64,000 nt of DNA, from positions 3,217 through 67,216 of the forward strand of contig JAWKHJ010000018.1 in assembly GCA_041394905.1 (NCBI GenBank). The letters run 5' to 3'. The translations under genes were made by a program, and so were the position numbers. Under the pieces are notes generated by a model. That model had not been told where the DNA came from, ran no database searches, and worked only from the letters and a program-made list of their open reading frames with translations. Below are positions 26,414 through 45,072 of this stretch, piece after piece. Each line of letters opens with the position of its first letter. Within the stretch, counting starts at the first letter, position 1. Source of the stretch: Bryobacterales bacterium (lineage in GTDB: Bacteria; Acidobacteriota; Terriglobia; Bryobacterales; UBA6623).

Positions 26414-27628
26414 CTAGCTCTGGAACACAGATTCGAGCCGCCGCACCTGCGCCGCGGCCAACTCCATCAGCCACCCCTCGGCATAGCGCACAGAATCGGG
26501 GCTGAGCGTGCGGATCGAGTCGAGATGACTCTTCGTCTTGCGTCCGAGCTCATATTCGCGAAGGAAGCTTTCCGGCGCGGCGGCGGTCGAGGGACGAATC
26601 AGTGCGCCTTCGATTTTCGACTGCCGCGCGATAAGCATCTCATGCTCGGCGCGAAGCTCGCCGCGCACCCGCTCGCCGGCTTTCTCGAGCGAGCGAGGCA
26701 GCTTACGGATGACCTTGTTGATGCGCTTGACGCGCTCGTCGATGTGACGCTGGATTTGTTCACGAGCCGCCTCGTAGAGCGGCGTCTGATCGCTATCTGC
26801 AAAGGGCATGCGCACCTCTGCGTACCAGCTCGATAGAGCCCAGAGGTTGCCAATGAGCTTGGCCGTCGTGATCAGCTTGCGCTTGAGACTGGTGTAGATC
26901 TCGCGGTCGAATCCCTCGACGTTCTGAGTGCGCGCGACCTCGAAGTGGACACAGCCCTGGCCAACATCGTGGCGCACGATGGAGCCGGCGGCAACCACTG
27001 CGCCGAAGTCGATGTGGACCGGGGCGACCAAGCCGACTTGTCCGCCGACAAAAACAGGCGCGGAGCGCAGCAGCACGCCGCGGACGTCACCCATCAAGCT
27101 GCCCCATTTGTCCTGGCGCGGGTCGAAGTTGAAATGCACCACCCCAGAGCCCACCTCGGAGTGGTCGTCGCGCGACGTGCCGCCCGACATGAACAGATCG
27201 CAGTAGTTGAGGATCGAGCCGGTGACGCAGGTCGCGGTGAGAATGGTGTTCTTGAATGCGACAGAGTGGGCCGCTTCCACTTCCTCTTCGAGCAGCGTGC
27301 CGGGGCGCAGTTCGGCGAAGCCGCGCACGGCGGCGCCTTCAAGCAGAGTGGCGCTGTCATAGGTTCCGGCGCCCATCTCGCAGTCGCGGCCGATCTGGCA
27401 ATCATGCACACGTGCGTGGCCGGACTGGCCGATCTTCGCTCCCCGACCGATGAAGGTCTTCGGCCCGCTGATCGTTGCGTTGTAGATGGTGGCGCCGGGC
27501 TCGATGTTCTCGATCGGCACATCGTCGGAGATGTATACGCGGTCCGAGCCCCAAACGTTCACCCCGCGATCGGACAGGCGAGCAATGCGGAGTCGGTTGC
27601 CGCCTTCGTCGTAACGATTTTCAAACAT
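26414..27628 (-). CDS. left-handed beta-helix (hexapeptide-repeat, GlmU C-domain-like) protein with helical C-terminal region
   Basis: ORF track 404 aa, intact. Repetitive I/V-G-x-x turns in the first 250 aa or so, then a charged helical tail. Last gene of the co-directional locus. Confidence 0.55.
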   Translation of the reverse strand: MFENRYDEGGNRLRIARLSDRGVNVWGSDRVYISDDVPIENIEPGATIYNATISGPKTFIGRGAKIGQSGHARVHDCQIGRDCEMGAGTYDSATLLEGAAVRGFAELRPGTLLEEEVEAAHSVAFKNTILTATCVTGSILNYCDLFMSGGTSRDDHSEVGSGVVHFNFDPRQDKWGSLMGDVRGVLLRSAPVFVGGQVGLVAPVHIDFGAVVAAGSIVRHDVGQGCVHFEVARTQNVEGFDREIYTSLKRKLITTAKLIGNLWALSSWYAEVRMPFADSDQTPLYEAAREQIQRHIDERVKRINKVIRKLPRSLEKAGERVRGELRAEHEMLIARQSKIEGALIRPSTAAAPESFLREYELGRKTKSHLDSIRTLSPDSVRYAEGWLMELAAAQVRRLESVFQS

Positions 27629-27642
27629 TCGAACCCCCGATT

Positions 27643-28812
27643 CTAGCCCATCGGGGGTGGTGTGACTTCACCGACGCCCAGGCCCGGGGCTTGGGGGAAA
27701 CAATACCCGGCGTCTCCCATCTCGACCGGGTGCTCGATGAACTGGTTCGCCCATTCGAGCACGCGCGGGTTGTATTCAACCAGATTGCAGCTCTCGGCCG
27801 CGGCGGCCAAGTGCAACGCGGCGGCGATTTGCGGACCACAGGCCGTGCTGACGTGCGGCACGACTTTGGCGCCGACCGAGGCCGCGGTCTCGGCAAGCGC
27901 AAACGATTCGGTGAGACCGACTCTGCCAAGGTCAGGCTGCAAAAACCCGACGACGCCTGCCTCGAAGAAGCGTTCGAGCTCATAGCGCGTGCGGTAGCTC
28001 TCGCCCAGCGCTAGAGGGGTCGCGATCGCTTCGTGCAGACGGCGGTGGACATCTACATCTTCAGGGTAGAAAGGCGCCTCGAGCCACAGGATGCCGCGGT
28101 TGTCGAGTTGCTTGCCAAATGCGACAGCACCCTCGGAGTCGAGCCGCCATAACGCGTCGACCGCGATTACGATGCCTTCGAAAGCGTCCTGCAAACGGTC
28201 GATCAAATCAAAGAGGTCGTCACGGGTCCGATCGTAGAAGAGCTTGTACGTGCGATAGCCCTGCTGCCAAGTTTTCCGAGCGGCCTCGACGCGGAGGGCA
28301 TTCGTGTCGCCGGCCAGACCGGAGACGTAGGCCGGCAGCTGCGACTTGGGGCTGTGCGCAACGAGAGCGGCGGCCGGCTTGCCTACGGCTTTGCCGGCCA
28401 AGTCCCACAAGGCGAGATCGACGCCGGCGATGGCATCCAGCATGAAGCCGCCGGTCTGACCGCGCACGCGCATGGTCGCGTACATGCGGCGATAGAGCTC
28501 AGCGATACGCTCGGGCGTCGAGTCGAGGTCTTCGCCGACAATGGCCGGTCGCAGCAACAACTCGACGATCGAACAGGCCACTTCAGGAGCGAGCGGCGCT
28601 TGCGCCTCGCCCCATCCCTCTAGGCCGTCGTCCGTGCGCACGCGGACGAGCGCAGTCTCGAAGCGCGACGAATAGAGGGTAGGAAACGTGGATGACCAGT
28701 GGTAGGCGAACTGGCCCTGCTGCAACTTGGCGGGCAAGCCCGCCGCGCCCGTGCCGGCGGCGACGTCACGGGCGAGCTTGACGGGAAAAGCGTCGAGAGC
28801 AGCGATTTTCAT
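27643..28812 (-). CDS. enolase-superfamily enzyme (mandelate racemase/muconate lactonizing family; probable acid-sugar dehydratase), cytoplasmic
   Basis: ORF track 389 aa. GWGEAQAP, IAGVDLALWDLAGK, and the metal-ligand pattern AVDA / WLEAP / LGES. Confidence 0.8.
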   Translation of the reverse strand: MKIAALDAFPVKLARDVAAGTGAAGLPAKLQQGQFAYHWSSTFPTLYSSRFETALVRVRTDDGLEGWGEAQAPLAPEVACSIVELLLRPAIVGEDLDSTPERIAELYRRMYATMRVRGQTGGFMLDAIAGVDLALWDLAGKAVGKPAAALVAHSPKSQLPAYVSGLAGDTNALRVEAARKTWQQGYRTYKLFYDRTRDDLFDLIDRLQDAFEGIVIAVDALWRLDSEGAVAFGKQLDNRGILWLEAPFYPEDVDVHRRLHEAIATPLALGESYRTRYELERFFEAGVVGFLQPDLGRVGLTESFALAETAASVGAKVVPHVSTACGPQIAAALHLAAAAESCNLVEYNPRVLEWANQFIEHPVEMGDAGYCFPQAPGLGVGEVTPPPMG

Positions 28813-28832
28813 GGTTCAGCTTCGAGCGCCGC

Positions 28833-29735
28833 CTAATAAACCAGCTTGCGCAACTGCGCCAGCTCGTCGAGCCCTGCGGCGTCGAGTGAGCGCGTCGGCT
28901 CGCGCACCGTGGCCGTCTTGATGATGCCGCGCGACACCAGGTTGTGCTTGGCGGCGGAGACGCCTAGGCCAGGTTGCAGCTCATAGCGAATCAACGGCAG
29001 CGCGCGCACGAATACTTCCCAGGCCTGCCCTGCGTCGCCGGCCTCGAGCGCGTTCCAGATCGCGACGAACAAACTCGTCATGTCAGCCGCAGGCATCACA
29101 CCGCGGGCGCCACGCTGGATCTCCTCGATCATGAACTGACCGTTGAGACCGCCCATCAACGTGACCGCTTCGCCGACCGCCCCGGCTACTGCAGTGATCT
29201 TCGGGGCCGTCGGCGGCGCCTCAACCTTTGCATATGCCACCCGCTCGACCTCGCGCCCGAGCCTGGCCAACAGCGCCGGAGGCATGGCGACGCCGGAGAG
29301 CATCGGCGCGTCCTGCACCATGATCGGAATCGTCACCGCATCCGAGATCGCACGGTAAAAAGCCACCACGCCCTCGCCGTCGGGCTTGAGGTAGTAAGGC
29401 GGCAGCACCATCAGCGCATTCGCCCCCAGGCCCTCCAGCATGCGGCAATCTTCCACCGCCGCCAGCGTCCCTGTGGCCCCGACTCCGGCAACCAGCGGAA
29501 CCCTTCCGTCAACATGGCGCGCGATCGTTTGCATCAGCTCGCGCTTCTCCGAAGAGAGCAACGCATAGCCTTCCCCCGCGTTGCCGAAAACACCGAGGCC
29601 GTGTGCGCCCTGTTCGATCAAATCGTCGGCGAGGCGCCTTTGGCTATCCAGATCGACCGAGCCGTCCTCGAAGAACGGCGTCGCGAGAATGGGGATGACC
29701 CCTTTGAGCAGCGGTTCCATCAAGCTCCTTGTCAA
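28833..29735 (-). CDS. DapA/dihydrodipicolinate-synthase-family lyase (2-keto-3-deoxy acid-sugar aldolase/dehydratase-like)
   Basis: ORF track 300 aa. ILATPFFEDGSVDL, GVFGNAGEG and the family TIM-barrel layout. The start overlaps the gntR stop by 4 nt. Confidence 0.8.
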   Translation of the reverse strand: MTRSLMEPLLKGVIPILATPFFEDGSVDLDSQRRLADDLIEQGAHGLGVFGNAGEGYALLSSEKRELMQTIARHVDGRVPLVAGVGATGTLAAVEDCRMLEGLGANALMVLPPYYLKPDGEGVVAFYRAISDAVTIPIMVQDAPMLSGVAMPPALLARLGREVERVAYAKVEAPPTAPKITAVAGAVGEAVTLMGGLNGQFMIEEIQRGARGVMPAADMTSLFVAIWNALEAGDAGQAWEVFVRALPLIRYELQPGLGVSAAKHNLVSRGIIKTATVREPTRSLDAAGLDELAQLRKLVY

Positions 29736-30448
29736 TCCGCCGCCGGCGCCGCTTCTTGGCGCTCGAGGTCGGCGAGAAGATTACGTTGGGCGCGGCGGAT
29801 GTGATCGGCCAACGCCTGGCCCAGTTCGGCGGCTTGGCGCCGGCCTAAGGCGTTCAGAATTTCGCGGTGCTCCGTCTGCTCCTGCGCCACGCGGGCGCGC
29901 CATTCCTCGGTGGCCGAGTGGATGCGCGCGATTTTGATGTGCGCCTCGAGCTCTTCATAGATCTCGTAGAGCTTGCGGTTGCCGCTCAAGCGAACCAGAC
30001 GGCGGTGGAACTCCGTGTTGAGCTCCTCGTGGCGCTGGCGCTGCTCGGCGTCCTCCACTGTCTCGTCCATGGCATCGACCATCGCCGTCAACTGATCGAG
30101 ATCATCCGGCGTGAGGTTCGAGACCGCGGACTCGGCGGCGAGCCGCTCGAGCGCGGTGCGCACCTCGAACGTCTCTGCGATTTCGCGCGGATCGATGCGC
30201 GCAATGTAGGTACCGCTGCGCGGAATGATCTCGACGAAACCGGCATCCGCGAGACGACCGATCGCCTGACGTACCGGCATCTGGCTGACGTCGAATGTCT
30301 CAGCGAGAGCCGGAATGTCGATCCGTTCACCGGGCTCGAAACGGCGGCCCAGAATAGCCGCGCGAATGCGCTCGTAGACATCATCGGCTATACGCCGGCG
30401 GTGAATCTTGGCGAAGCCGCTCGCTCTGGATTTGCGCGCTTTCTTCAT
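29732..30448 (-). CDS. GntR-family (FadR/FCD-type) transcriptional regulator
   Basis: ATG at 30448 (MKKARKSRASGF...) within ORF 29732..31195. wHTH IPALAETFDVSQMPVRQAIGRLADAGFVEIIPRSGTYI followed by a helical FCD domain. ATGA overlap with the MFS stop. Confidence 0.85.
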   Translation of the reverse strand: MKKARKSRASGFAKIHRRRIADDVYERIRAAILGRRFEPGERIDIPALAETFDVSQMPVRQAIGRLADAGFVEIIPRSGTYIARIDPREIAETFEVRTALERLAAESAVSNLTPDDLDQLTAMVDAMDETVEDAEQRQRHEELNTEFHRRLVRLSGNRKLYEIYEELEAHIKIARIHSATEEWRARVAQEQTEHREILNALGRRQAAELGQALADHIRRAQRNLLADLERQEAAPAAD

Positions 30449-31734
30449 CGTGCAAGCGCCTCTCGTGGCTGCGCCTGATCTTCGTCGATCCCGCCCTTGA
30501 CCAATGCCCGCAGCAAAAGATAGGCGGCGGGATGGAGGAACGACATCACTACAAAAATAGTCGCATAAGAATAGTGCTCGACTACATAGCCCACCGCACC
30601 GGTTGCGAGTACGGAGCTCAGCGAGCTTCCCAAACCAACCAATCCGGAGACGGAGCCGACGATGGCCGTGGGGTAGATGTCGTTCGTCATCGTCATTTGG
30701 TTGGTTTTCCACGACATGTGCGCGAAGGTAATCAAGCAAATTGCCGCGACCGCAATGACGTTCGACTCGGTCCAAGCGACGACCATGCCCAGCGGCATGA
30801 GCAACGCGCTGAACAGCATCACCCGGCTGCGAGCCTTCACCGGAGAGAGCCCGGCCTTGATCAACCGGCCCGAGGCGTAGCCGCCGAGCATGGAGCCGAT
30901 ATCCGCGGTGAGATAAGGAATCCAGGAGGTAAGCGCAACCATCTCGATGGTGAAGCCCCGATCCTCCTGCAAGTACTTGGGCAGCCAAAACAGATAAAAC
31001 CACCAAACCGGGTCGGCGACCACGCGCGTCAAAAACAATCCCCAGGTTTGCGGGAATTTGAATAGGTCGCGCCAGCGGATCTTCGTTTCCCGGCGGTTGA
31101 ACGCAGCCTCGCGCGCAATCATCTGCCGCTCGTCTTCGGTGACACGCGGATGCTCGTCCGGCGTCCAGTAGAGGCGCATCCAAAAAACCAGCCACACGAA
31201 GCCCGCCGCGCCAGTGATGACGAAGGCCGCGCGCCAGCCGTAGCTACGGTAGATCCAGACAATCAGCAGCGGCGCGACGATCGCGCCGGTCGCCGCCGCC
31301 GCGTTCACCAAGCCATTTGCGAAACCGCGTTCCTTGGGAGGAAACCACTCCGAGACAGCTTTCTCCGCCGCGAGGAAATTGCCCGCCTCGCCGGCGCCCA
31401 GCAGCGCACGGAACAGCCCTAGCGTCAGCGCCCCGCGCGCCACGCCGTGCAACATGTTGGCCAGCGACCACCAGACCATCGCCACAGCCAATGCAACGCG
31501 CGTTCCCCAGCGGTCGATCAGCAAGCCCCAGACGATGTACATTCCGGAGTAACAGATCAGAAACCCCTGAAGTATCTGCGAGTATTCGATATTCGAAAGG
31601 CCGAATTCGTCTGAAATCTGAACGGCGAGAACCGACAGCGTCTGACGATCGACGTAGTTGATCACCGTGGCGAAAAACAACAACGCCGCGACACGCCAGC
31701 GGATGTTCGGCGTCTTTGCAGCGGCGTCGGTCAT
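30445..31734 (-). CDS. MFS transporter, anion:cation symporter type (hexuronate/galactonate-like)
   Basis: ORF track 429 aa, 12 predicted TM segments. NYVDRQTLSV and GAGEAGNF motifs. Confidence 0.8.
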   Translation of the reverse strand: MTDAAAKTPNIRWRVAALLFFATVINYVDRQTLSVLAVQISDEFGLSNIEYSQILQGFLICYSGMYIVWGLLIDRWGTRVALAVAMVWWSLANMLHGVARGALTLGLFRALLGAGEAGNFLAAEKAVSEWFPPKERGFANGLVNAAAATGAIVAPLLIVWIYRSYGWRAAFVITGAAGFVWLVFWMRLYWTPDEHPRVTEDERQMIAREAAFNRRETKIRWRDLFKFPQTWGLFLTRVVADPVWWFYLFWLPKYLQEDRGFTIEMVALTSWIPYLTADIGSMLGGYASGRLIKAGLSPVKARSRVMLFSALLMPLGMVVAWTESNVIAVAAICLITFAHMSWKTNQMTMTNDIYPTAIVGSVSGLVGLGSSLSSVLATGAVGYVVEHYSYATIFVVMSFLHPAAYLLLRALVKGGIDEDQAQPREALAR

Positions 31735-33017
31735 CCTACCCGATACCTTTCTAGCTTTCTCTCGTCAAACTCGACGCCAATGCCGTGACCTTCCGGCACG
31801 CGCGCGTCTCCCGGGCTCCAAGCAAGCGGATGTTTGAGCAGATCGTTGCCGAAGGGCCGCTCGAGCAGTGTGCCGCCCTCGATGATGACCGAGTTGGGCG
31901 TGTGCGCGGCCAGGTGCGTCGATGCCGCCAAATAGAGCGCCGTTCCAGTAGAGACGTGCGGAGACCAGAGCACGCCATGTACGTCCGCCAAGATGGCGAT
32001 CTTACGGCACTCGGTCACGCCGCCTGCACGACAAACGTCCGGATTGATGATGTCGACGGCTCGCGCCGTGAACAAGTCGCGAAACTGGAATCGGTTTGAA
32101 ACCTCTTCTCCCGCACAGATAGGCGTCTTGAGCGAGGCGCTGAGTTCGGCATAGCCGCCGATGTCCTCGGGCAGCAGAGCGTCTTCCCACCAGCCAATGT
32201 TGGACAACTCGTCGAGCCGTGCGCCCACCTCGCGCGCTTCGTGGATCTTGTACGCGCCGAGCGAATCGAGCAACAGCTGGCCGTTCTTCCCGATGGCTTC
32301 TGATGCTGCGAACACGCGCTCGATGTCCGACGTGCCGGCGCCCTTCGCCAGACCCATCTTCACGGCGGAGAAGCCTCGCTCGAGCGCCGCACGCGCGTTG
32401 CGTTGCAGCTCGTCGAGGGTGCGGCCGCCTAGGCTCGAATACGTCGGGATAGCATCACGGTATTTGCCGCCCAACAAGCGGTAAAGCGGCTGCTCAGTGT
32501 ACTTGCCCAGCAAATCCCACAGCGCCAGGTCGATGCCAGCGATCGATTCTGTGAAGAAGCCGGTGGCGTAGCCGCGTGTGCGCTGGCTCGAGTAGAGCTT
32601 TTCCCACAACGGTTCGACTTGCCGCGCGTCCTGCCCAACCAGAATCGGAGCGAACAGATCGCTGACAACCGCCTCGTGGACACGTGGCGCGGCGGGCGCA
32701 TGACTCTCACCCCAGCCGACGAGCCCCTGCTTGGTGGTGATCTTGACCAGCAACGCTTGGGTAGCGCCGTGGAAGCGGGAAGGCGACGCGTGATCGAGCC
32801 GGTTCCAGAGGCCTTTGCCGCCGGTCATCGCGCCTAACGGCGGCATCTGGATGTAGTGCTCGGGCGGCTGGTCTTCAACAGGCGTGCGAATGACAATCGG
32901 CTCCGCGCTTTGGATCTCGAGCGGCCCGTTGCCCGCGGCATGAAGGCGATCGAGCAGCGGAGCGGCGGAGAGGCCGAGAGCGCTCGAGAGGAATCGGCGG
33001 CGGCTGGTCTTCGACAT
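31731..33017 (-). CDS. enolase-superfamily enzyme (mandelate racemase family) with twin-arginine signal peptide
   Basis: ATG at 33017 (MSKTSRRRFLSSALGLSAAPLLDRLHAAG) inside ORF 31731..33476. GWGESHAP, IAGIDLALWDLLGK, and the ligand pattern LLLD / WWED / AGEE. Confidence 0.8.
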   Translation of the reverse strand: MSKTSRRRFLSSALGLSAAPLLDRLHAAGNGPLEIQSAEPIVIRTPVEDQPPEHYIQMPPLGAMTGGKGLWNRLDHASPSRFHGATQALLVKITTKQGLVGWGESHAPAAPRVHEAVVSDLFAPILVGQDARQVEPLWEKLYSSQRTRGYATGFFTESIAGIDLALWDLLGKYTEQPLYRLLGGKYRDAIPTYSSLGGRTLDELQRNARAALERGFSAVKMGLAKGAGTSDIERVFAASEAIGKNGQLLLDSLGAYKIHEAREVGARLDELSNIGWWEDALLPEDIGGYAELSASLKTPICAGEEVSNRFQFRDLFTARAVDIINPDVCRAGGVTECRKIAILADVHGVLWSPHVSTGTALYLAASTHLAAHTPNSVIIEGGTLLERPFGNDLLKHPLAWSPGDARVPEGHGIGVEFDERKLERYRVG

Positions 33018-33040: not shown

Positions 33041-33826
33041 TTACTGGGCGTCCTGCACGCAGCGGAAGCCCAAATTGGGGGTCTTCTGATTGGGGCGAAC
33101 CCAGTTGCGGAAGAAAACGGTGATGCGTCGCGGACCGCTGGACCACGAGCCGCCCCGGATGACTTTGTACATCCCGGTCTCCGGTCCCTTGGGGTTGGCG
33201 GCCGGACTGGCTTCGTAATAGGTGCGTTCGAACCAGTCGCTGCACCATTCCGCCACTCCGCCGGCCATGTCGCGCAGCCCATAGGCATTGGGTTTGCGTT
33301 TGCCGACCGCGCTTGGGCCCAGAGGAGTATTGAACAGCGCGACCGATGTGGTCGGCTTGTCGTCGCCCCAAGGATAGTCGAGCCCTTCCAGTCCGCCGCG
33401 GGCGGCTTTTTCCCACTCGGCCTCGGTCGGCAGACGTTTGCCCGCCCAGGCGCAATAGTCGGAGGCGTCCTGCCAATCCACGTTGTAGACCGGGAGGTCC
33501 TTTTTCTCTTCCGGCATCTTGCCGCCCAGCCAGTGGTATGGAGGTGTGTGGTGGGTCGCTTCGACGAACGCGGCGTACTTGGCGTGGGTAACCTCATCGA
33601 CGTCCATGTAGAACGCGTCGATCAGGACCGTGTGTACAGGGCGGTCGTCGCGCAAGGCGAGCGGCCGCATGCCCTTTTCGTCATCGGCAGTCAATCGGTG
33701 ACGGCCCATCGAAAACTCGCCCGCGGGAATGAGAGCCATGCCCATCGGCGCCTTGGGCGCGGCGTTCTCCGCCGCCGTCAGCGTTGTCGCGAGCGCGAGC
33801 CCGATCAAGACGCGGAACGCGTTCAA
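33041..33826 (-). CDS. secreted FGE-sulfatase-fold (SUMF1/EgtB-like) domain protein lacking the FGE Cys pair
   Basis: ORF track 261 aa. Signal peptide, YCAWAGKRLPTEAEWEKAARGG, NAYGLRDMAGGVAEW and RGGSW...GFRC. The start overlaps the DUF1501 stop by 4 nt. Confidence 0.8.
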   Translation of the reverse strand: MNAFRVLIGLALATTLTAAENAAPKAPMGMALIPAGEFSMGRHRLTADDEKGMRPLALRDDRPVHTVLIDAFYMDVDEVTHAKYAAFVEATHHTPPYHWLGGKMPEEKKDLPVYNVDWQDASDYCAWAGKRLPTEAEWEKAARGGLEGLDYPWGDDKPTTSVALFNTPLGPSAVGKRKPNAYGLRDMAGGVAEWCSDWFERTYYEASPAANPKGPETGMYKVIRGGSWSSGPRRITVFFRNWVRPNQKTPNLGFRCVQDAQ

Positions 33827-37147: not shown

Positions 37148-38101
37148 TTACTTTACCCGACGAAATATCTGCACCCGGTTGCCATTCACCTCCGCGACGA
37201 ACAGGCGTCCGTCCGCAGCCGTTGCCATCAGGTGCGGCAGCTGCAGCGTCTGCGCGTCGCCCCACTGCGCCACGAGCTTGCCGTCTTTCAAGCTGAGGTG
37301 GTTGATCTTGTTGGCATCGCCGTCGCTCACCAGCAGAACGTCCCCCACGACTAGAGCGCCAAACGGATTGCCGAAGCCGCCCCAGGCGCCGAGGAACTTG
37401 CCCTCGGGTGAAAACACCTGGATACGGTTGTTCCCGCGGTCGGCCACGTAGATGCGGTCCTGCTTGTCGATCGCGATTCCGTGTGCGGCCGCGAACTCGC
37501 TCTCGCCCTTGCCTTTCTTGCCCCATTCGCCCACGTAGGAGCCGTCGGCCTTCAAGTGGACGATGCGCCCGTTGCCGGCGTCGGCCACGTAAATGTCGCC
37601 GTTGGAGGCGAACACCAAATCGTCGGGCGAGCGAAACAGGGTCTCCCCCGCCCCGGGCGTCGACTCGAGCCCGTAGGTCGCGAGCAATTCGCCTTGGGGC
37701 GAAAACTTGCGGATCACGTGGCGCCCGTTGTCCGTCGTCCAGATGTTGCCGTCGGGCCCGACGCGCAGCCCATGCGCCACCTGGAACATGCCGTCGCCGA
37801 AGGCGTTCACCATCTTGCCCTTGTCGTTGAATGCCAACAAAGGCGGCTCGCCCCGGTGCAGAATATAGACGTTGCCTTTGGCGTCGACATCGACCGCGGA
37901 CATCGCCCCCAAGCGCACCGCTCCCGGGATCTCGACGAAGCCCTCGGAGACGTAGGGCTCGGCGGCCATGGCAGCCGTTGCGAGCAAAAAAAGAGCCACG
38001 GGGACCAGCGCTTGCGACCGTCCCCGCAACGGATGGCGGACGCGGAGGAGACAGCCACGAGTGACTGCCCCCAGCGCGCCGGATTGAAGCAAATTCTTCA
38101 T
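37148..38101 (-). CDS. secreted NHL-repeat six-bladed beta-propeller protein
   Basis: ORF track 317 aa. Repeated GxxxxPxGxAVDxxGNIYVAD-like blades (GNVYILH, GNIWTTD, GDIYVAD, DRIYVAD). Confidence 0.8.
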   Translation of the reverse strand: MKNLLQSGALGAVTRGCLLRVRHPLRGRSQALVPVALFLLATAAMAAEPYVSEGFVEIPGAVRLGAMSAVDVDAKGNVYILHRGEPPLLAFNDKGKMVNAFGDGMFQVAHGLRVGPDGNIWTTDNGRHVIRKFSPQGELLATYGLESTPGAGETLFRSPDDLVFASNGDIYVADAGNGRIVHLKADGSYVGEWGKKGKGESEFAAAHGIAIDKQDRIYVADRGNNRIQVFSPEGKFLGAWGGFGNPFGALVVGDVLLVSDGDANKINHLSLKDGKLVAQWGDAQTLQLPHLMATAADGRLFVAEVNGNRVQIFRRVK

Positions 38102-38105: not shown

Positions 38106-41100
38106 CTAGAAGATCAGCTTGAGGCCAAGCTGGATGACGCGCGCATCGCGCGCCGCCGTGATGGTACCGAACGAGCCACTGGCATTGAAGCCGTCCGGGC
38201 CAGGCGAGAAGCTGTCGTTCACCAGCTTGTAGTTCGTCTGGTTGAGGAAGTTGAACGCCTCGGCGCGAAACTGCACGTTGAATCGCTCGCTGATCCGAGT
38301 GTCCTTGATCATCGAAAGGTCCCAATTGACTGCGCCGGGGTGCCGCACGTCCGGTAAAGCGCGTCCTACGTTGCCGAAGGTAAAGTCCGGCGGGTTGACG
38401 AACTGCGTCGTGTCGAACCAACGCTGCGGCGTGCGCTCGCCACGCGGCAATGCGGCGCTCACACCAGTCGAATTGGGACGGTCGGCCTGGAAGTTGCTCG
38501 CACCGCGAACGGTTACCGGCACGCCGTTTTGCATCACGCCGATCACGTTGAGCTGCCATCCGCCGACGATCTTGCGCATCACGGCGCTGCCCGGATCGAA
38601 ACGCCGACCACGTCCGAACGGCAACTGGTAGATGCCGCTCAGCACAAGTCTGCGCGAAACGTCCGTCGGGTCGATCGAACGTGCCGGTTGGCGGTTATAC
38701 AACCCGTTCTGGAAGCCGTTCTCATTCACCTGCTCCACCGAGCCGAAGTTAACCGGGTTCGCGAGCGAATCAGAAATCCGCTTGCCGCCGGTGAACGCCG
38801 CGTGCAACAGCAATCCGTTGGTCAGCCGCTTCTTCACCGTCAATTGCAGCTGGTGCGAAACGTAGTTGCCGAGTCTGGGGTTCCGGATGCTTACGGAGTT
38901 GTAGTACGGAAACGCCATCAGTGAACGCTCACGCGTGATGGTGGCCGCGCCAAGGCCGCCGGGCGCCATGCCGGCATACGGATTGGGCACGCGGTCGTTC
39001 AGCGACTGGCCGAGTGCTAGGCGTGTCGCCGGGTCAATCTGGTTTAGGTTGTAGCCCGACCCGATGAAGTGGTTGCCCTTGTTGCCCGCGTAGCTTGCTT
39101 CGAACATCCAATCCTTGATTTGGTGCTGGATGCCGAAGTTCCATTGCTGGGTCAGCGGCGTGGTCTTGTCCGACTCGGTCAGGTTCACTGACTGCCCCAA
39201 GCGCGCGGCCGGGCCGGCGGAAGCGCCCGGAGACTCGTCGGGAGCATAGGGCAGACCGTTCTCGAACTGGAAGGCGGCCAAGCCGGGCGTCCCCGTCACA
39301 TATTGCGTGCGCGTGCTCGAGAACAGCGTGACATCGCCAAGGAAGTTGCGCCAGAAGATCGACGGATAAAACACACCGTAGCCGCCACGTAGTACCGTCT
39401 TACCTTTGCCGGTCACGTCGTAGGCAAAGCCAAAGCGTGGCGCGAAATCGTTGTGATCCTCGTTCAAGAAGGTCCGCGGCTGGCCGTCGACGCCCGCGAA
39501 GACCGTACAGCCGGTCAGGCCGTTGGGTAGCGTGCAGGTCGGGTCGAAGTTGATTTGGCCGTTGTTGCGCTCGTAGGGCTTCTGCTGGAAGTCGTAACGC
39601 GCGCCCAGGTTGAGGGTCAAGCGGCGCGAAACCCTCCAGTCGTCTTGCAGGAAGAAGCTCCAGGCGACGGCATGCCAGGAGTTGCCCAAAATGCGGTCGA
39701 TGCTCGCCGAAGAGACCGAACCGAGCAGGAACTGCGCCATGTTGGAGCCGGTTCCGCTGGTCCTTTGCGGGTTGGTGGTCAGCCCGCTGAAGGCGTAGTT
39801 GCCGGACAGAGCCGCGCCCTGCTTGTTGCCGCCGTAGAGGTTGCGGTAGTTTGCCCCAATCTTGAGCGTGTGCGAGCTCTTCACCAGCGTGACCATGTCC
39901 TGCACGTCCCAGTTGAGGGAGGTCCGCGTGCCGGCAGCGCCGCCGCCGATCGTGCCAAAGCCGAAGTTCACCTGCGGCATCTGATCGTTGGGCACGCTCG
40001 CGGGCAGGCCGAGCTTGCTCGGCCAGTCCTGGCCGAAGTTGACGGCCGTAAAGGCAAACGCCTGGCGCATGATGCCCACACGCAGGTTGTTGATCACGGT
40101 CGGCGAAAACGTGTGTGTATCGGAAACGACGGCGTTGCGGTTCGTCTGATCGTCAAAGCGGTTGGAGCCCGCATTGGGATCGGTGAAGATCGCGTTCGAC
40201 GAGGGCTGGTGGCGCGACTGCGTGTAGCGCACGAAGATCGAATTCTTGTCGGTGATGCGGTGGTCGACCTTCGTGTTCCATTGCGACCAATCGACGTTGC
40301 TCGCCGAGACGTCCTGGTAATTCTGGCTGAAAGTGTAGGCGTTGACCGGCGCACGGTTGGCGTTGGGCCACAGCGCAACGATGTTCGGTGCGACATTGTC
40401 AAAGCGGGTCTGCGGTACCTGATTGTTCGCGAAGACATCGCGGACAAGACCAGAGCCCGCCGGATTGGGCCGCGTCGTCGCCGGATCATAAACCGGGATC
40501 GAGGCGCCCGAGGCCGTGCGTAACTCGCTGAAATCGCCCTGTCGGAACGGCGCGATCGGAACCGTCGAGATTCGCGGGTTGGAACGGCGCAGACGATACT
40601 CTTCCCAGTTGAAGAAACCGAACGTACGATTCTTGATGATCGGGCCGCCGATCGAGGCGCCGAACTGGTTGTAGCGCAGCGGCAGCTTCGTCCCCGCGAA
40701 GGTATTGCGCGCATCGAACTTGTCGTTGCGCAGAAATTCGTAGGCCGTGCCGTGGATCTGATTGGTGCCGGAACGGGTAACCAAGTTGACCGCACCGCCG
40801 GCCGTGAAACCAAACTCCGCCGACATCGTGCCCGATTGCACTTTGAACTCTTCCACCGCATCGACAGCCGGCGGAACGCCAATCTCGCCAACGTAGCTCA
40901 GCGTGTTGTTGTTGCCGTCGAGCATCTGGGCGTTCATCGAGTTGGGGCTGCCGTTGATCGAAATCGACGAAAGCGCGATGCCACGATCCCCGAAGCCGGA
41001 GTTCGTGGGGCCGGCGTTCGAAACCACGCCGGCGTTCAGCATGGTCAAGGCGAGCGCGTTGCGCCCGTTTAGAGGCAAGTCCGCCACGCTTTTGCGCTCG

Positions 41101-41507
41101 ATCACTTCGCCCAGAGTCGCGTCCGATGCGCTCACCAGCGGAGCCTCGCCCGTGACCTCGACCACCTCGGCCACCGCGCCAACCTCGAGCGTCAAGTTGA
41201 TCTGCGCGATCTGATTCACTTGCAAAGTCACGCCGCTGTGGACGGCGCGCTTGAAACCAGCCGACTCAGCGGTAATCTCGTACTCTCCAACGGCGAGACC
41301 GGGCGCAACGTATCCGCCGCGCTCGTTTGTCACCGTCGAAAAGACCGCATTGGTCGACGTGTTCACGACATTCACCTGTGCTCCGGGAATGACTGCGCCC
41401 TGCTGGTCGCTCACCGTTCCCGAAATCGTGCCCATGCTCTGCTGGCCAAAGGCGGTCAGCGCACACAAGGCGCTCAGCGCAACAATGCGCATACCTCGAA
41501 CCTTCAT
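38106..41507 (-). CDS. TonB-dependent receptor, CarboxypepD_reg-plug-barrel type (paralog 1)
   Basis: ORF track 1133 aa, intact. Signal peptide, GTISGTVSDQQGAVIPGAQV, and C-terminal LGLKLIF aromatic end. CAGGAGG ribosome-binding site about 12 nt upstream. Confidence 0.9.
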   Translation of the reverse strand: MKVRGMRIVALSALCALTAFGQQSMGTISGTVSDQQGAVIPGAQVNVVNTSTNAVFSTVTNERGGYVAPGLAVGEYEITAESAGFKRAVHSGVTLQVNQIAQINLTLEVGAVAEVVEVTGEAPLVSASDATLGEVIERKSVADLPLNGRNALALTMLNAGVVSNAGPTNSGFGDRGIALSSISINGSPNSMNAQMLDGNNNTLSYVGEIGVPPAVDAVEEFKVQSGTMSAEFGFTAGGAVNLVTRSGTNQIHGTAYEFLRNDKFDARNTFAGTKLPLRYNQFGASIGGPIIKNRTFGFFNWEEYRLRRSNPRISTVPIAPFRQGDFSELRTASGASIPVYDPATTRPNPAGSGLVRDVFANNQVPQTRFDNVAPNIVALWPNANRAPVNAYTFSQNYQDVSASNVDWSQWNTKVDHRITDKNSIFVRYTQSRHQPSSNAIFTDPNAGSNRFDDQTNRNAVVSDTHTFSPTVINNLRVGIMRQAFAFTAVNFGQDWPSKLGLPASVPNDQMPQVNFGFGTIGGGAAGTRTSLNWDVQDMVTLVKSSHTLKIGANYRNLYGGNKQGAALSGNYAFSGLTTNPQRTSGTGSNMAQFLLGSVSSASIDRILGNSWHAVAWSFFLQDDWRVSRRLTLNLGARYDFQQKPYERNNGQINFDPTCTLPNGLTGCTVFAGVDGQPRTFLNEDHNDFAPRFGFAYDVTGKGKTVLRGGYGVFYPSIFWRNFLGDVTLFSSTRTQYVTGTPGLAAFQFENGLPYAPDESPGASAGPAARLGQSVNLTESDKTTPLTQQWNFGIQHQIKDWMFEASYAGNKGNHFIGSGYNLNQIDPATRLALGQSLNDRVPNPYAGMAPGGLGAATITRERSLMAFPYYNSVSIRNPRLGNYVSHQLQLTVKKRLTNGLLLHAAFTGGKRISDSLANPVNFGSVEQVNENGFQNGLYNRQPARSIDPTDVSRRLVLSGIYQLPFGRGRRFDPGSAVMRKIVGGWQLNVIGVMQNGVPVTVRGASNFQADRPNSTGVSAALPRGERTPQRWFDTTQFVNPPDFTFGNVGRALPDVRHPGAVNWDLSMIKDTRISERFNVQFRAEAFNFLNQTNYKLVNDSFSPGPDGFNASGSFGTITAARDARVIQLGLKLIF

Positions 41508-41540
41508 CGAAACCGAACCTCCTGTTCCCCATTCGGAAAG

Positions 41541-41560
41541 CGATCTGTTATATCAGATCG
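41541..41560. promoter_or_regulatory. 20-bp palindrome CGATCTGTTATATCAGATCG (candidate operator overlapping an extended -10-like element) upstream of TBDR paralog 1
   Basis: Perfect 7-bp arms with a 6-nt AT spacer, centre about 43 nt upstream of ATG 41507. The reverse complement recurs at 45100. The minus strand reads TGATATAAC. A TTGACA lies at 41589-41594 (minus strand). Confidence 0.45.
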
Positions 41561-41625
41561 TCGTTAGGCTAGCCGATAGAGCCTAGCCTGTCAACTGGAG
41601 GACGGTTAGCCCTGTAAAGCTATCG

Positions 41626-41658
41626 CCGGGCCGCCGCCAGGGCTAGTCGGCGGCCCGG
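41626..41658 (-). terminator. GC-rich hairpin after TBDR paralog 2 stop
   Basis: CCGGGCCGCCG-11 nt-CGGCGGCCCGG: an 11-bp stem 16 nt downstream of stop 41674, with no clear U tract. Confidence 0.4.
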
Positions 41659-41673
41659 GGTCAATTCGCGGGC

Positions 41674-44600
41674 CTAGAAGATTAGCTTCAGGCCCAGTTG
41701 CATCACACGCGCATCGCGCGCGGAGTTGATCACGCCGAACGTCGCGCTTTGGTTCTTGCCGTCCGGCCCCGCCACGAAGGTATCGTTCACCAAACCGTAG
41801 TTGACGTGGTTGAGGAAGTTGAAAGCCTCTGCCCGGAACTGGATGTTGAAACGCTCGCCGATGTGCGTATCCTTGATCAGCGAGAGATCCCAGTTCACCG
41901 TACCCGGGTGACGCACGTCCGGTAACGAGCGCCCGATGTTGCCAAACGTGAACAGCGCCGGGTTCACGAACTGGTCGGTATCGAACCAACGTTGCGCCGT
42001 GCGCTGGTCGCCCGGCAGTTTGGCGCTCACGCCTGTCGAATCGGGGCGGTCGGCGCCCTGGTTGTTGGCGCCGCGGACGGTGATCGGAAGGCCGGTCTGC
42101 ATCACGCCGATCGTGTTGATCTGCCAGCCGCCGACGATCTTGTTCAGCACGGCGTTCGACGGATCGAAGCGTCGCCCACGGCCGAACGGCAACTCGTAGA
42201 TACCGCTGATCACCAACCGGCGGGATACATCGGTCGGATCGACGCCCTTCTGCGACTTGCGGTCGTAGAGGCCGTTCTGGAAGCTGTTCTCGTTCGTCTG
42301 CTCCACCGCGCCGAAATCCACCGGATTGGCGAGCGAGTCCGAGATCTTCTTGCCGCCGGTGAACGCGACATGCATCAGCAGGCCTTGCGCCAGCCGCCGC
42401 TTCACGTTGATCTGCACCTGGTGCGAGTTGTAGTTACCCATCAACGGATTGCTGATGTTGACCGAGTTGTAATACGGGAACGCCATCAGGGAGCGCTCCC
42501 GGGAGATCGTGGCCGCACCGAGGCCGCCCGGAACCATGCCGGCATAAGGGTTGGCGACGGCGTCATTGAGCGACTGGCCCAGTTGCAACCGCACGGCCGG
42601 ATCGATCTGGTTGAGGTTATAGCCACCCGCGATGAAGTGGTTGCCCTTGTTGCCGGCGTAGGTCACGTCGAACATCCACTCTCCGATCTGGTGTTGGATG
42701 GAGAAGTTCCACTGCTGAGTGAGCGGCGTGATGCCCTTAGCCTCGCGCAGGTTCACAGCTTGGCCCAGCCGCGCTTCCGGTCCGGCCGACCGCCCCGGCG
42801 ACTCGACCGGCGCATAGGGGAAGCCGTTCTCGAAGAAGAACGATTCCCGGTTGGGCCCGACAGCAACGTAGCTCGTCCGCGTGGTCGAGAACAGCGTGGT
42901 GTCGCCGAAGAAGTTGCGCCAGAAGATCGATGGATAGAAGACGCCGTAGCCGCCGCGAATGACGGTCTTGCCTTGGCCGGTCAGGTCATAAGCGAAGCCG
43001 AAACGCGGCGCGAAGTCGTTGTGATCTTCGGATACGAACGAGCGCGGCTGGCCCTCGTAGTTGGCATAGACGGTGCATCCCTTCAAGCCGTTCGGCAACG
43101 TGCAGGTCGGATCGAAGTTGATGTGGCCGTCGTAGCGCTCCACCGGGCGGCGCTGGAAGTCGTAGCGCAGACCGAGGTTCAACGTCAGCCGGCGGCTGAC
43201 CTTCCAGTCGTCGTTCACGAAGCCGCTCGCTGCGTAGCCCTGCCAGGAATTGCCCAGGATGCGGTCGATGTTCGACGAGTTCACCGCACCGAGCAGGAAC
43301 TGTGCCATGTTGGAGCCGGTACCACCCGGGCTTTGCGGATTCGTCGTCAAGCCGCTGAAGCTGAAGGCGCCCGACAGCGCCGCACCTTGCAGGTTGCCGC
43401 CGTAAAGGTCACGGTAGTTCGCGCCCAGCTTGAGCGTGTGCGAGCCGTGCACCCAGGTCAGCATGTTCTGGATATCCCAGTTGAGTGAACCGCGCTTACC
43501 CGCGGCGCCGCCGCCGATCGATCCGAACCCAAAGTCGATTTGCGGCATCTGGTCGTCGGGGACGATTGCCGGCAAGCCGAGCTTGCTCGGCCAGTTCTGC
43601 CCGAAGTTGACCGCGGTGAAATTGAACAACTGCTGCACCACGCCCACGCGGAAGTTATTGATCACGGTCGGCGAGAACGTGTGCGTATCCGAAAGCACGA
43701 TGTTCTTGTTCGTCTGGTTGTCCACGCGGTTCGAGCCGACGGTGGGATCGGTAAAGATCGAGTTTGCCGACGGCGAATGCTCGGCCTGGGTATAGCGGAA
43801 GAAGATCGAGTTCTTGTCGTTGAAGACGTGGTCGAGCTTGCCGTTCCACTGCGACCAGTCGACGTCGCTGGTGGCGGCGTTTTGGAAGTTTTGCGCGAAT
43901 GTGTTCGCGTTGCTCGGCGCGCGGTTCGCTTCGGGCCAGAAGGCGAGAATCTTCGGCGTGATCGCGTCAAAACGCGCCTGCGGAACCAGGTTGTTCGCGA
44001 AGGCGTCGCGAATCTGGCCACCGCCGTTGGGGTTGGCTCGCGTTGTCGCCGGATCGTAGACCGGGATGAAAGCGCCGGCCGAGGTCTTCAACTGCGAGAA
44101 GTCGCCCTTGCGGAATGCATCGATCGGAACCGAGGCGATGCGCGGCGTCTGGCGGCGCAGGCGATACTCTTCCCAGTTGAAGAAAAAGAATGTCTTGTTC
44201 TTGATGATCGGACCGCCGACGGAGGCGCCGAATTGGTTGTAGCGCAGCGGCAGCTTGTTGGCCGTGAAGGTGTTGCGGGCGTCGAACGCGTTGTTGCGCA
44301 GAAACTCGTACACGGTGCCGTGGAACGTGTTTGTTCCCGAGCGCGTGACGAGGTTGACCGTGCCCCCGGCGGTGAAACCGAACTCGGCTGACATCGTTCC
44401 CGATTGCACCTTGAACTCTTCAACCGCATCGACGGCCGGAGGCACGCCGACTTCGCCCACGTAGCTCAGCGTGTTGTTGTTGCCGTCGAGCATGCTGGCG
44501 TTCATCGAGTTCGGGCTGCCGTTGATCGAAATCGCCGAGAGCTGGATGCCGCGGTCGCCAAAGCCTGAATTCGTGGGGCCGGCGTTGGAGATGACGCCCG

Positions 44601-45072
44601 TATTGAGCAACGTCAGCGCGAGCGCGGAACGGCCGTTGATCGGCAGGTCCGCGACGCGTTTGCGCTCGATGACCTCGCCGAGCGTTGCGCCGGAGACGTC
44701 GACCAGCGCCGCGTCCGCGCGGACTTCGACGACCTCGGCGACGGCGCCGACTTCGAGCGTGAGATTGACCAGAGCGTTTTGGTTGACTTGGAGGGTTACG
44801 CCGGTTCGAAGAGCCTTCTTGAAGCCCTCGGATTCGGCGGAGATTTCGTAGTCACCCACCGGCAAGCCTGGAGCGGTATAAAATCCGCTTTCATTGGCTG
44901 CCGCAGTGGAGACTGCGTTTGTCGCAACATTGCGAACTTGGATTTGTGCGCCGGGAACGACCGCCCCTTGCGGATCGGTGACCGTACCGGAGATCGTACC
45001 GGAGCTTTGTTGACCAAAAGCGAGACATGCGCTGACAAGCGCGAGCGCCACGAGGCGCCACCCCTGAAACAT
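41674..45072 (-). CDS. TonB-dependent receptor, CarboxypepD_reg-plug-barrel type (paralog 2)
   Basis: ATG at 45072 (MFQGWRLVALALVSACLAFGQQ) inside ORF 41674..45153. GGAGG ribosome-binding site 8-9 nt upstream. Collinear with paralog 1 along its full length. Confidence 0.9.
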   Translation of the reverse strand: MFQGWRLVALALVSACLAFGQQSSGTISGTVTDPQGAVVPGAQIQVRNVATNAVSTAAANESGFYTAPGLPVGDYEISAESEGFKKALRTGVTLQVNQNALVNLTLEVGAVAEVVEVRADAALVDVSGATLGEVIERKRVADLPINGRSALALTLLNTGVISNAGPTNSGFGDRGIQLSAISINGSPNSMNASMLDGNNNTLSYVGEVGVPPAVDAVEEFKVQSGTMSAEFGFTAGGTVNLVTRSGTNTFHGTVYEFLRNNAFDARNTFTANKLPLRYNQFGASVGGPIIKNKTFFFFNWEEYRLRRQTPRIASVPIDAFRKGDFSQLKTSAGAFIPVYDPATTRANPNGGGQIRDAFANNLVPQARFDAITPKILAFWPEANRAPSNANTFAQNFQNAATSDVDWSQWNGKLDHVFNDKNSIFFRYTQAEHSPSANSIFTDPTVGSNRVDNQTNKNIVLSDTHTFSPTVINNFRVGVVQQLFNFTAVNFGQNWPSKLGLPAIVPDDQMPQIDFGFGSIGGGAAGKRGSLNWDIQNMLTWVHGSHTLKLGANYRDLYGGNLQGAALSGAFSFSGLTTNPQSPGGTGSNMAQFLLGAVNSSNIDRILGNSWQGYAASGFVNDDWKVSRRLTLNLGLRYDFQRRPVERYDGHINFDPTCTLPNGLKGCTVYANYEGQPRSFVSEDHNDFAPRFGFAYDLTGQGKTVIRGGYGVFYPSIFWRNFFGDTTLFSTTRTSYVAVGPNRESFFFENGFPYAPVESPGRSAGPEARLGQAVNLREAKGITPLTQQWNFSIQHQIGEWMFDVTYAGNKGNHFIAGGYNLNQIDPAVRLQLGQSLNDAVANPYAGMVPGGLGAATISRERSLMAFPYYNSVNISNPLMGNYNSHQVQINVKRRLAQGLLMHVAFTGGKKISDSLANPVDFGAVEQTNENSFQNGLYDRKSQKGVDPTDVSRRLVISGIYELPFGRGRRFDPSNAVLNKIVGGWQINTIGVMQTGLPITVRGANNQGADRPDSTGVSAKLPGDQRTAQRWFDTDQFVNPALFTFGNIGRSLPDVRHPGTVNWDLSLIKDTHIGERFNIQFRAEAFNFLNHVNYGLVNDTFVAGPDGKNQSATFGVINSARDARVMQLGLKLIF

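Follow-up and report, generated by a model that had tools for sequence, protein, structure and literature searches.

Organization and conservation of the locus

The window analysed here is a 64,000-nucleotide stretch of a contig (JAWKHJ010000018.1) from an acidobacterium of soil or sea, of the order Bryobacterales, that carries, between positions 26414 and 45072, twelve densely packed open reading frames (ORFs), all on the minus strand (Table 1). In the direction of transcription they encode two tandem TonB-dependent receptors (TBDR2 and TBDR1), an NHL beta-propeller, a DUF1549/DUF1553 protein, a DUF1501 protein, a protein with the fold of formylglycine-generating enzyme (FGE), an enolase-superfamily enzyme with a twin-arginine translocation (Tat) signal that we call enoP, an MFS transporter, a GntR/FCD regulator, a DapA-like enzyme, a second, cytoplasmic enolase-superfamily enzyme (enoC) and a GlmU-acetyltransferase-like protein. 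The genes do not form one unit of twelve but two modules that can occur apart. One is a core consisting of a TBDR, the Tat-exported (predicted) enoP, the ACS-type MFS transporter, the GntR/FCD regulator, the DapA-like enzyme and cytoplasmic enoC; the other is a cassette of DUF1549/1553, DUF1501 and FGE-like genes, to which the NHL gene may be added. Two elements of the locus are notable: a predicted periplasmic clade of the enolase superfamily, and the concrete context that the locus gives to the DUF1501/PSCyt families.

Table 1. Positions of genes and other features of the locus within the window
Feature	Position	Strand	Evidence and remarks
Operator-like near-palindrome GATCTGTTATATCAGATC, 18 bp	45101..45118		29-46 nt upstream of TBDR2 start codon
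TBDR2, outer-membrane receptor	41674..45072	-	Pfam CarboxypepD_reg + OMP_b-brl_4; tandem paralogue of TBDR1
GC-rich hairpin without U-tract	41626..41658	-	RNA fold of spacer; directly after TBDR2 stop codon
Second operator-like copy, 18 bp	41542..41559		Opposite orientation; 35-52 nt upstream of TBDR1 start codon
TBDR1, outer-membrane receptor, conserved copy	38106..41507	-	Pfam CarboxypepD_reg + OMP_b-brl_4
Secreted six-bladed NHL beta-propeller, optional cassette member	37148..38101 (alternative start 37999)	-	Pfam NHL E 3e-27
DUF1549(PSCyt2)-DUF1553(PSD1) protein	35238..37145 (alternative start 37100)	-	Pfam PSCyt2 E 3e-32, PSD1 E 1e-34; Sec signal
Tat-signal DUF1501 protein	33823..35208	-	Pfam E 3e-55; 29 nt downstream of DUF1549/1553
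Secreted FGE-fold protein	33041..33826	-	PF03781 E 2e-59, 202 bits; Sec-type signal
enoP, Tat-exported (predicted) enolase-superfamily enzyme	31731..33017	-	Pfam MR_MLE_N/C
ACS-type MFS transporter	30445..31734	-	MFS_1; gene most often directly beside enoP
GntR/FCD-family regulator	29732..30448	-	Pfam GntR + FCD; no signal peptide
DapA/DHDPS-family Schiff-base enzyme	28833..29735 (alternative start 29720)	-	PF00701 E 1e-40
enoC, cytoplasmic enolase-superfamily enzyme	27643..28812	-	MR_MLE; no signal peptide; 31% identical to enoP
LbH (GlmU-acetyltransferase-like) protein	26414..27628	-	Weak hexapeptide match; GlmU C-terminal domain E 2e-11

Conservation was assessed with a scan anchored on enoP, at one genome per species, which gave 80 loci onto which the twelve proteins were mapped by tblastn; 48 of these have at least 8 kb on either side and are called full-flank loci below. 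Neighbouring ORFs were clustered and the clusters annotated with Pfam. A filter of the ORF caller based on GC content at third codon positions (GC3) returned nothing for the low-GC loci L054, L072, L073, L077 and L080; the first was recovered separately, and the contexts of the other four are therefore under-sampled. A preliminary description of this DNA, made from the sequence, had proposed asking whether the gene order recurs outside this genome, and it does: about 30 Bryobacterales species hold the order TBDR-(NHL)-DUF1549/1553-DUF1501-FGE-like-enoP-MFS-GntR-DapA-enoC, at 45-93% protein identity. Related loci occur in the Bryobacter and Solibacter lineages. Among the full-flank loci the MFS gene is present in 39, the DapA-like and enoC genes in 35 each, GntR in 33, TBDR in 31, the cassette in 22, NHL in 6 and LbH in 1; over all 80 loci, NHL is found in 11 and an LbH orthologue in L028 alone. 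Most relatives have a single TBDR. The LbH gene is thus adjacent and co-directional, yet not a conserved part of the locus, and because it and the second receptor are lineage-specific, the conserved unit amounts to about ten genes, fewer than the twelve originally proposed.

The cassette stays next to enoP or to the core in at least six rearranged gene orders. It is shifted behind enoC in L011, is followed by DapA-MFS-enoP in L034 and L041, and comes after the same three genes in L049; TBDR-enoP precedes it in L056, L067 and L113 combine a divergent core with TBDR-enoP-cassette, and in L112 a different DUF pair is divergently transcribed. A scan of metagenomes with the DUF1501 protein added 27 loci at 62-83% identity. 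In these, DUF1549/1553 lies upstream and the FGE-like gene downstream wherever the flank suffices, and NHL is often found upstream. The cassette is separable, with DUF1549/1553-DUF1501-FGE-like as its invariant core, because it also occurs without acid-sugar genes. The neighbours of such cassette-only loci are mixed (acetyl-xylan-esterase-like, pectate-lyase-like, amidohydrolase and signalling proteins) and form no coherent alternative partner.

The gene calls themselves are well supported. The twelve co-directional, tightly spaced genes seen earlier recur in the independent stored calls of JAWKHK010000016.1 (GCA_041394825.1), a public contig from a Bryobacterales metagenome-assembled genome that is 99.9% identical to the window and differs from it within the locus by four substitutions and zero indels. 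Those calls place later starts on the NHL, DUF1549/1553 and DapA-like genes (283, 620 and 295 aa, respectively). With the starts chosen here, the junctions along the block measure 166, 4, 2, 29, -4, 23, -4, -4, -4, 20 and 14 nt. Three of the four 4-nt overlaps reported before are firm (33823-33826, 31731-31734 and 30445-30448); the fourth, between GntR and DapA at 29732-29735, is insecure, because it needs a TTG start and the public call starts DapA later. Pfam and NCBIfam profiles uphold every domain call for the twelve products. What had been called a beta-helix protein keeps a weak hexapeptide/LbH match and is similar to the acetyltransferase domain of GlmU; inspection of its N-terminus revealed no signal peptide. 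An Rfam scan of the locus gave zero matches. Opposite-strand genes delimit the block, an M28 peptidase gene below 26414 and an ASPIC/UnbV gene above 45193. Relative to the public contig the window has small indels at 22346-22348 and 26090-26115, both outside the locus, which reflect assembly or strain variation. As a result pntB is broken into two overlapping ORFs, and a frameshift at the C-terminal end of the M28 peptidase gene creates a spurious ORF of 603 aa in overlap with the LbH gene.

The core module and its regulator

The N-terminus of enoP, SRRRFLSSALGLSAAP, is a twin-arginine signal, and an N-terminal RR motif is found in 103 of its 120 best homologues (57-100% identity). In a library of representatives at 50% identity the enoP clade is a single full-length representative, also with a Tat-type N-terminus. 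The 29 next relatives inspected, at 43% identity or less, have no signal peptide at the N-terminus, and we therefore regard the clade as discrete. Our literature search found no relevant report of Tat-exported or periplasmic enolase-superfamily enzymes, although the superfamily has been studied intensively.

The nearest solved structures are AtGci (4GGB/4HPN, E 1e-55) and DauB (5OLC, E 4e-49), a D-galactaro-1,4-lactone cycloisomerase and a 3,6-anhydro-D-galactonate cycloisomerase, respectively, the latter acting in a sulfated-galactan pathway; in these cycloisomerases Lys166 is the general base and His296 the general acid (PMC5698469). Both enzymes yield 2-keto-3-deoxy acids by beta-elimination of a ring oxygen. 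The metal ligands of enoP (D251/E278/E304) are invariant in 28 homologues, as are D327 and H354. Its ligands align with D194/E220/E246 of AtGci and its His with His296, and the metal-binding and His-Asp catalytic residues look intact in the alignment. The His-Asp dyad is of the MR/acid-sugar subgroup type and not the second Lys of the MLE subgroup. enoP is thus like AtGci and DauB in keeping all three metal ligands and the general-acid His, and differs from them in its conserved Tat signal and in having no Lys at the general-base position, which is occupied by Gly222 (Gly, Ser or Glu across the clade); K220 and K225 are invariant, the latter three residues further on. The top NCBIfam matches are all acid-sugar dehydratases, at 220, 178, 159, 158 and 156 bits, whereas amino-acid-type models reach 78 bits (cis-3-hydroxy-L-proline dehydratase) and 51 bits. 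The cut-off of 311 bits for galactonate dehydratase DgoD (NF010624) is reached neither by enoP (220 bits) nor by enoC (124.5 bits). We suggest that enoP is a candidate periplasmic acid-sugar beta-eliminase.

The company that enoP keeps outside Acidobacteriota bears on its product. In a Latescibacterota single amplified genome (L109, 5733-12728) it stands with genes for a sulfatase, a 2-keto-3-deoxy-6-phosphogluconate (KDPG)-aldolase-family protein, a PfkB-family kinase, a DUF386 protein and a TBDR. A PfkB-type kinase and a KDPG-type aldolase carry out the next two steps of the DauB pathway, and the Latescibacterota locus holds genes of both families together with the sulfatase gene. A semi-phosphorylative end appears to replace enoC and DapA there, and the context points to a 2-keto-3-deoxy-hexonate as the product of enoP. 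Recurrent neighbours in related loci are sulfatases, GFO/IDH/MocA oxidoreductases, a pyrroloquinoline quinone (PQQ) dehydrogenase-cytochrome c, GH43 and fucosidases; classical sulfatase genes lie near 11 related loci. In L070, L071, L074 and L078 the neighbours of enoP are two GFO/IDH/MocA oxidoreductases, a xylose-isomerase-like TIM-barrel protein, a second DHDPS-family enzyme and a TBDR, a context that we take to be similar to periplasmic oxidation systems of the 3-keto-sugar and C-glycoside type.

At the inner membrane and in the cytoplasm the assignments are more conventional. The best NCBIfam match of the MFS transporter is the D-galactonate transporter family TIGR00893 (242 bits, under the cut-off). 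The DapA-like enzyme has its Schiff-base Lys170 in AYAKVEA, PPYY at residues 111-115 and no signal peptide; its best PDB match is L-2-keto-3-deoxyarabonate dehydratase (3FKK/7C0C, E 6e-40), and we predict a 2-keto-3-deoxy-acid dehydratase or aldolase. The structures closest to enoC (2PPG, 4H1Z, 2NQL and 4DN1) are uncharacterised structural-genomics targets, and a search of the literature on these four found nothing relevant. Like Weimberg/Dahms-type pathways, the locus sets enoC beside a DapA-family enzyme that best matches L-2-keto-3-deoxyarabonate dehydratase and, as in dgo- and rhm-type operons, a galactonate-transporter-like MFS protein and a GntR/FCD regulator accompany the pair. It differs from Weimberg/Dahms-type systems in having no sugar dehydrogenase, cytoplasmic lactonase or alpha-ketoglutarate-semialdehyde dehydrogenase, in matching the curated models below their cut-offs, and in having a second, predicted periplasmic enolase-type enzyme ahead of uptake. 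At 46891-47742 (plus strand), 1.8 kb upstream of the locus, is a gene of the fumarylacetoacetate-hydrolase family, which is a source of hydrolases and dehydratases in non-phosphorylative deoxy-sugar-acid pathways; L091 has a 62%-identical homologue some 5.6 kb downstream of its cassette.

TBDR1 and TBDR2 are 75% identical, and it is orthologues of TBDR1 (66-79% identity) that stand first in the locus in most Bryobacterales relatives. Both receptors match the OMP_b-brl_4 barrel at E 1e-217 and CarboxypepD_reg clearly; the Plug domain is a weak match at the expected position (E 0.04-0.07, 14-15 bits versus a cut-off of 23.9). The window holds two further TonB-type receptor genes: a 649-aa ORF at 19038-20987 (plus strand) with Plug and CarboxypepD_reg matches and no barrel match, which may be truncated or frameshifted, and a complete 1028-aa receptor at 50269-53355 (minus strand).

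The two palindromes noticed earlier at 41541 and 45100 prove to be a single 18-mer, GATCTGTTATATCAGATC, which occurs exactly twice in the 64 kb against a chance expectation of 0. At its core is the perfect palindrome TCTGTTATAACAGA, which 28 related loci have shortly before a TBDR gene, versus 1 match in shuffled sequence. TCTGTTATAACAGA has the form T-GT-N4-AC-A, which is the operator type of FadR/FCD-subfamily GntR regulators, and the regulator of the locus has a GntR winged helix-turn-helix and an FCD domain. It is a candidate binder of both palindromes; if it does bind TCTGTTATAACAGA, the "catabolic" half, which encodes the regulator, would be linked to the receptor genes in the "uptake" half. 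The 166-nt spacer between the receptor genes folds strongly (-79.2 kcal/mol, z = -5.2 for the whole spacer) and matches no Rfam family, and a consensus scan of it found no sigma-70-like promoter. The hairpin once ascribed to this spacer is real. The promoter-like signals reported with it are unsupported, because consensus promoter and terminator scans gave no excess over shuffled sequence (1 vs 3.0; 14 vs 18.2). Divergent from TBDR2 is a gene for a secreted FG-GAP/ASPIC-UnbV protein (45193-46755, plus strand), and the operator-like palindrome lies in the intergenic region common to both. In L100 a homologue with 54% identity adjoins the receptor gene in an equally divergent arrangement; homologues also adjoin it in L015, L023/L115 and L012, and the FG-GAP/ASPIC-UnbV gene may belong to the same regulon as the locus.

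The DUF1501 cassette and related gene pairs

The DUF1549/1553 protein is the short form, without the PSCyt1 domain. The CISCH sequence that had been pointed out in it, a putative haem-c motif at residues 247-251 (codons 36393-36407), is present and is invariant in 30 homologues. An AlphaFold2 model is mostly helical and of low confidence, with a predicted local distance difference test (pLDDT) score of 62, and the motif falls in its least confident region (residues 186-332, pLDDT below 40); a fold search of the model against the PDB gave no match (best E 0.69). The NHL propeller has a Sec-type signal at its N-terminus and matches peptidyl-hydroxyglycine lyase (E 7e-23). NHL-DUF1549/1553 fusion proteins exist (P0354, 868 aa; L095, 857 aa), which argues that the propeller acts physically with DUF1549/1553.

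Tat signals had been proposed for the DUF1501 protein as well as for enoP, and both stand: in DUF1501 the signal reads ATRRDVLKYG, with R11 and R12 invariant in 28 homologues. Invariant His-rich motifs (SH, SHExxH, WDHH and GRHH) suggest a metal site. The sequence has no relative in the PDB. In a Foldseek search with its AlphaFold2 model (pLDDT 63, predicted TM-score 0.72) the top matches all belong to the alkaline-phosphatase superfamily (LtaS, YejM/PbgA, S1 sulfatases and phosphonate monoester hydrolase), with low TM-scores of 0.3-0.35 and E 3e-4. A scan of DUF1501 for the sulfatase C/S-x-P/A-x-R signature found none, which excludes a formylglycine sulfatase; genuine neighbouring sulfatases in related loci carry CSPTR or CTPTR, and hhalign of DUF1501 against these gave a probability of 3%, aligning TEFGR with the sulfatase SDNG motif only. 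Wherever the flank suffices, the gene of the FGE-fold protein adjoins DUF1501. The protein can be aligned well to FGE from bacteria and humans, and it has W---SSGPRR in place of the LCHDSYC that holds the catalytic copper-binding Cys pair in Streptomyces coelicolor FGE (2Q17/6MUJ). With both catalytic cysteines absent, its identity as a formylglycine-generating enzyme is excluded.

The locus had been said to embed an uncharacterised DUF1501/DUF1553 pair. A Tat-signal DUF1501 protein does adjoin a CISCH-bearing PSCyt2-PSD1 protein; the pair is not free-standing, and belongs to a separable cassette from which the FGE-like gene is never missing. These families were reportedly recognised by Studholme in 2004. 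In the DUF1501 plus PSCyt/PSD1 modules of Planctomycetota and Verrucomicrobiota, as here, a Tat-signal DUF1501 protein lies beside a secreted CxxCH-bearing PSCyt2-PSD1 protein. The version described here differs in coming from Acidobacteriota, in being the short form, and in that a cysteine-less FGE-fold protein always comes next, NHL often precedes it or is fused to it, and the whole sits inside a TBDR/acid-sugar operon. Published work treats the module as conserved, assigns it no function and hints at a part in electron transfer or carbohydrate use (Kamneva 2012, PMC3542564; He 2017, PMC5615132); its link to carbohydrate use was suggested previously and is not new here. We found no later characterisation of it in the literature.

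Other pairs of the PSCyt type occur near enoP. In the Blastocatellia loci L047 and L052, PSCyt1-PSCyt2-(Laminin_G_3)-PSD1 and DUF1501 genes lie between enoP and MFS-enoC-DapA, and PSCyt3/PSD2-5 with DUF1552 lies directly upstream of enoP in L063, L066, L068, L047 and L038. DUF1501/DUF1552 genes number 18, 10, 3 and 5 in successive 2.5-kb bins outward from enoP, and 29 of the 36 are on its strand. An FAD oxidoreductase (PF12831) with DUF7402 and F5/8-type-C domains is found between NHL and DUF1549/1553 in L028 (3736-5826) and L004 (3475-5832) and is absent from the window; the same PF12831 family lies beside a TBDR gene in L045, L048, L057, L059, L062 and L075. The window itself has a second "Planctomycete-specific" pair at 46-5442 on the minus strand, a PSD3/PSD5/PSD4 plus cytochrome-c protein (2908-5442) and a DUF1552 fragment (46-1653), the ORFs of which look split, possibly by frameshifts.

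A proposed pathway and its alternatives

We suggest, with moderate confidence, that the locus is a composite operon for the use of an acidic sugar, that its functions span the cell envelope and that GntR probably represses it; the cassette would pre-process the substrate of the pathway. The sugar is probably freed from, or still bound to, a fragment of an acidic or sulfated glycan; both the substrate and the chemistry of the cassette are inferred. Export signals predict a periplasmic location for the NHL, DUF1549/1553, DUF1501 and FGE-fold proteins and for enoP. In the scheme we envisage, the TonB-dependent receptors would import the substrate, and the (NHL)-DUF1549/1553-DUF1501-FGE-like cassette, where present, would form one periplasmic complex that binds it, removes or oxidises a substituent and exposes the free acid-sugar. 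enoP would then abstract the carboxylate-adjacent proton and eliminate the beta-substituent (OH, or a ring or ether oxygen, as in AtGci and DauB) to give a 2-keto-3-deoxy acid. The adjacent ACS-type MFS symporter would carry this acid, or a co-released aldonate, into the cell, where an enoC dehydratase and the DapA-family enzyme could lead to alpha-ketoglutarate semialdehyde, or to pyruvate plus an aldehyde. A pathway intermediate would release the GntR/FCD regulator from the TCTGTTATAACAGA operators.

The succession of import, periplasmic processing, inner-membrane uptake, dehydratase-lyase and regulator that the preliminary description had read from the gene order fits the domains, the signal peptides and the strongly conserved synteny. 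It had likewise remarked that SusD is missing, and none of the twelve products matches the SusD family in Pfam; nor did we find a characterised pathway of this composition described in the literature. The locus is like the carbohydrate-utilization (CUT) loci of the Xanthomonas type and the polysaccharide utilization loci (PULs) of Bacteroidota in combining a TonB-type receptor, periplasmic processing, an inner-membrane transporter, cytoplasmic catabolism and a local regulator in one co-directional cluster. It differs in having neither a SusD-like protein nor a recognisable glycoside hydrolase or lyase, in a periplasmic step made up of function-unknown proteins and an enolase-superfamily enzyme, and in a receptor of the acidobacterial CarboxypepD_reg/OMP_b-brl_4 type. 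A Pfam search found no carbohydrate-active enzyme (CAZyme) domain in the twelve products, and GH43 and fucosidase genes are present in some related loci only. With neither SusD nor CAZyme, we reject a canonical PUL.

Several observations weigh against a single acid-sugar operon. Seven of the 12 cassette-anchored loci that extend at least 3 kb beyond the FGE-like gene have no acid-sugar genes; the other five carry them, two of the five without enoP. In these two, L082 and L100, the FGE-like gene is followed directly by MFS-GntR-DapA-enoC, so that enoP is dispensable in some versions. About 40% of enoP loci have no PSCyt-type pair of any kind within 10 kb, and given this and the seven uncoupled cassettes the coupling of cassette and core is frequent, not obligatory. 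Loose proximity is itself weak evidence, because genomes of this sort are rich in PSCyt-type pairs, of which the window has a second. The syntenic loci are mostly from related Bryobacterales and are not independent observations. The locus has no alpha-ketoglutarate-semialdehyde dehydrogenase, sugar dehydrogenase or CAZyme, and the scheme gives no reason for having one enolase-type enzyme in the periplasm and another in the cytoplasm. All NCBIfam matches score under the curated cut-offs, and the reaction of enoP is not transferable from AtGci or DauB, because the Lys166 position holds Gly, Ser or Glu.

The uncoupled loci also speak for the strongest alternative, namely that two unrelated systems are neighbours: a self-contained TBDR-cassette that takes up and processes a substrate other than an acid-sugar, and an ordinary sugar-acid operon, their juxtaposition being inherited history in Bryobacterales. 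Core without cassette is likewise seen in many loci (L012, L018, L023 and L026, for example), and since the full-order loci mostly share one order, vertical inheritance can account for much of the conservation. History of that kind does not readily explain why at least six different rearrangements hold the cassette directly beside enoP or the core, or why, in Blastocatellia and Bryobacter, PSCyt-type pairs that are not orthologous to that of the cassette lie within the same core. Moreover, the genes overlap by 4 nt or are 2-29 nt apart, no terminator was detected between the halves, and the regulator gene lies in one half and a conserved operator before the receptor gene of the other. We regard two neighbouring systems as possible, though rather unlikely.

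It seems improbable to us that the locus serves the catabolism of a carboxylate that is not a sugar, for instance a modified amino acid, a compound of the hydroxyproline type or an acid derived from peptides. The enolases would in that case be racemases, epimerases or dehydratases, the DapA-like enzyme would be a pyrroline-carboxylate deaminase, and the NHL protein would be a PAL-like lyase. Both the enolase superfamily and the DapA family do include enzymes for amino-acid derivatives, as the 78-bit match of enoP to cis-3-hydroxy-L-proline dehydratase recalls, and the propeller does match peptidyl-hydroxyglycine lyase. Peptidase genes occur as well: one of family M28 abuts the locus, and others of family M16 are found in the vicinity of some relatives. 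The M28 gene, however, is convergent and its synteny is not conserved. Against this chemistry, enoP scores far higher on acid-sugar than on amino-acid-type models, its His-Asp dyad is that of the MR/acid-sugar subgroup, the transporter is closest to the galactonate-transporter family, and the contexts hold a KDPG-aldolase-family gene, a PfkB-family sugar-kinase gene, sulfatases, GH43 and fucosidases.

That DUF1501 is a formylglycine-dependent sulfatase matured by its FGE-fold neighbour, in a cassette for desulfation of a sulfated glycan, is very improbable: the predicted sulfatase-superfamily fold, the 202-bit FGE-sulfatase domain and the classical sulfatases near related loci invite the idea, and we dropped it on the missing Cys pair of the one protein, the missing sulfatase motif of the other and the negligible profile-profile match. 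Maturation of unfolded DUF1501 also seems unlikely, because DUF1501 would be exported folded by the Tat route and the FGE-like protein carries a Sec-type signal.

We therefore return to a composite operon for an acidic sugar, and to what it would mean. In Planctomycetota, Verrucomicrobiota and Acidobacteriota few families without an assigned function are as abundant as the DUF1501 and PSCyt/PSD proteins, and the locus links a defined DUF1501/PSCyt subfamily to a few tractable enzymes and a regulator with a predicted operator, a context that can be tested. As a bolder and doubtful extension, we speculate that the cassette is a new haem- and metal-dependent periplasmic machine for glycan processing without glycoside hydrolases, which makes or uncaps an acid-sugar for the first known periplasmic, Tat-exported enolase-superfamily enzyme, and that PSCyt-type pairs, whether they include DUF1501 or DUF1552, serve the sugar-acid pathways of these three phyla as front ends, each specific for its substrate. 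If true, such a role would explain the dozens of copies of these pairs per genome. The periplasmic enolase clade, if confirmed, would add a periplasmic step to bacterial sugar-acid metabolism.

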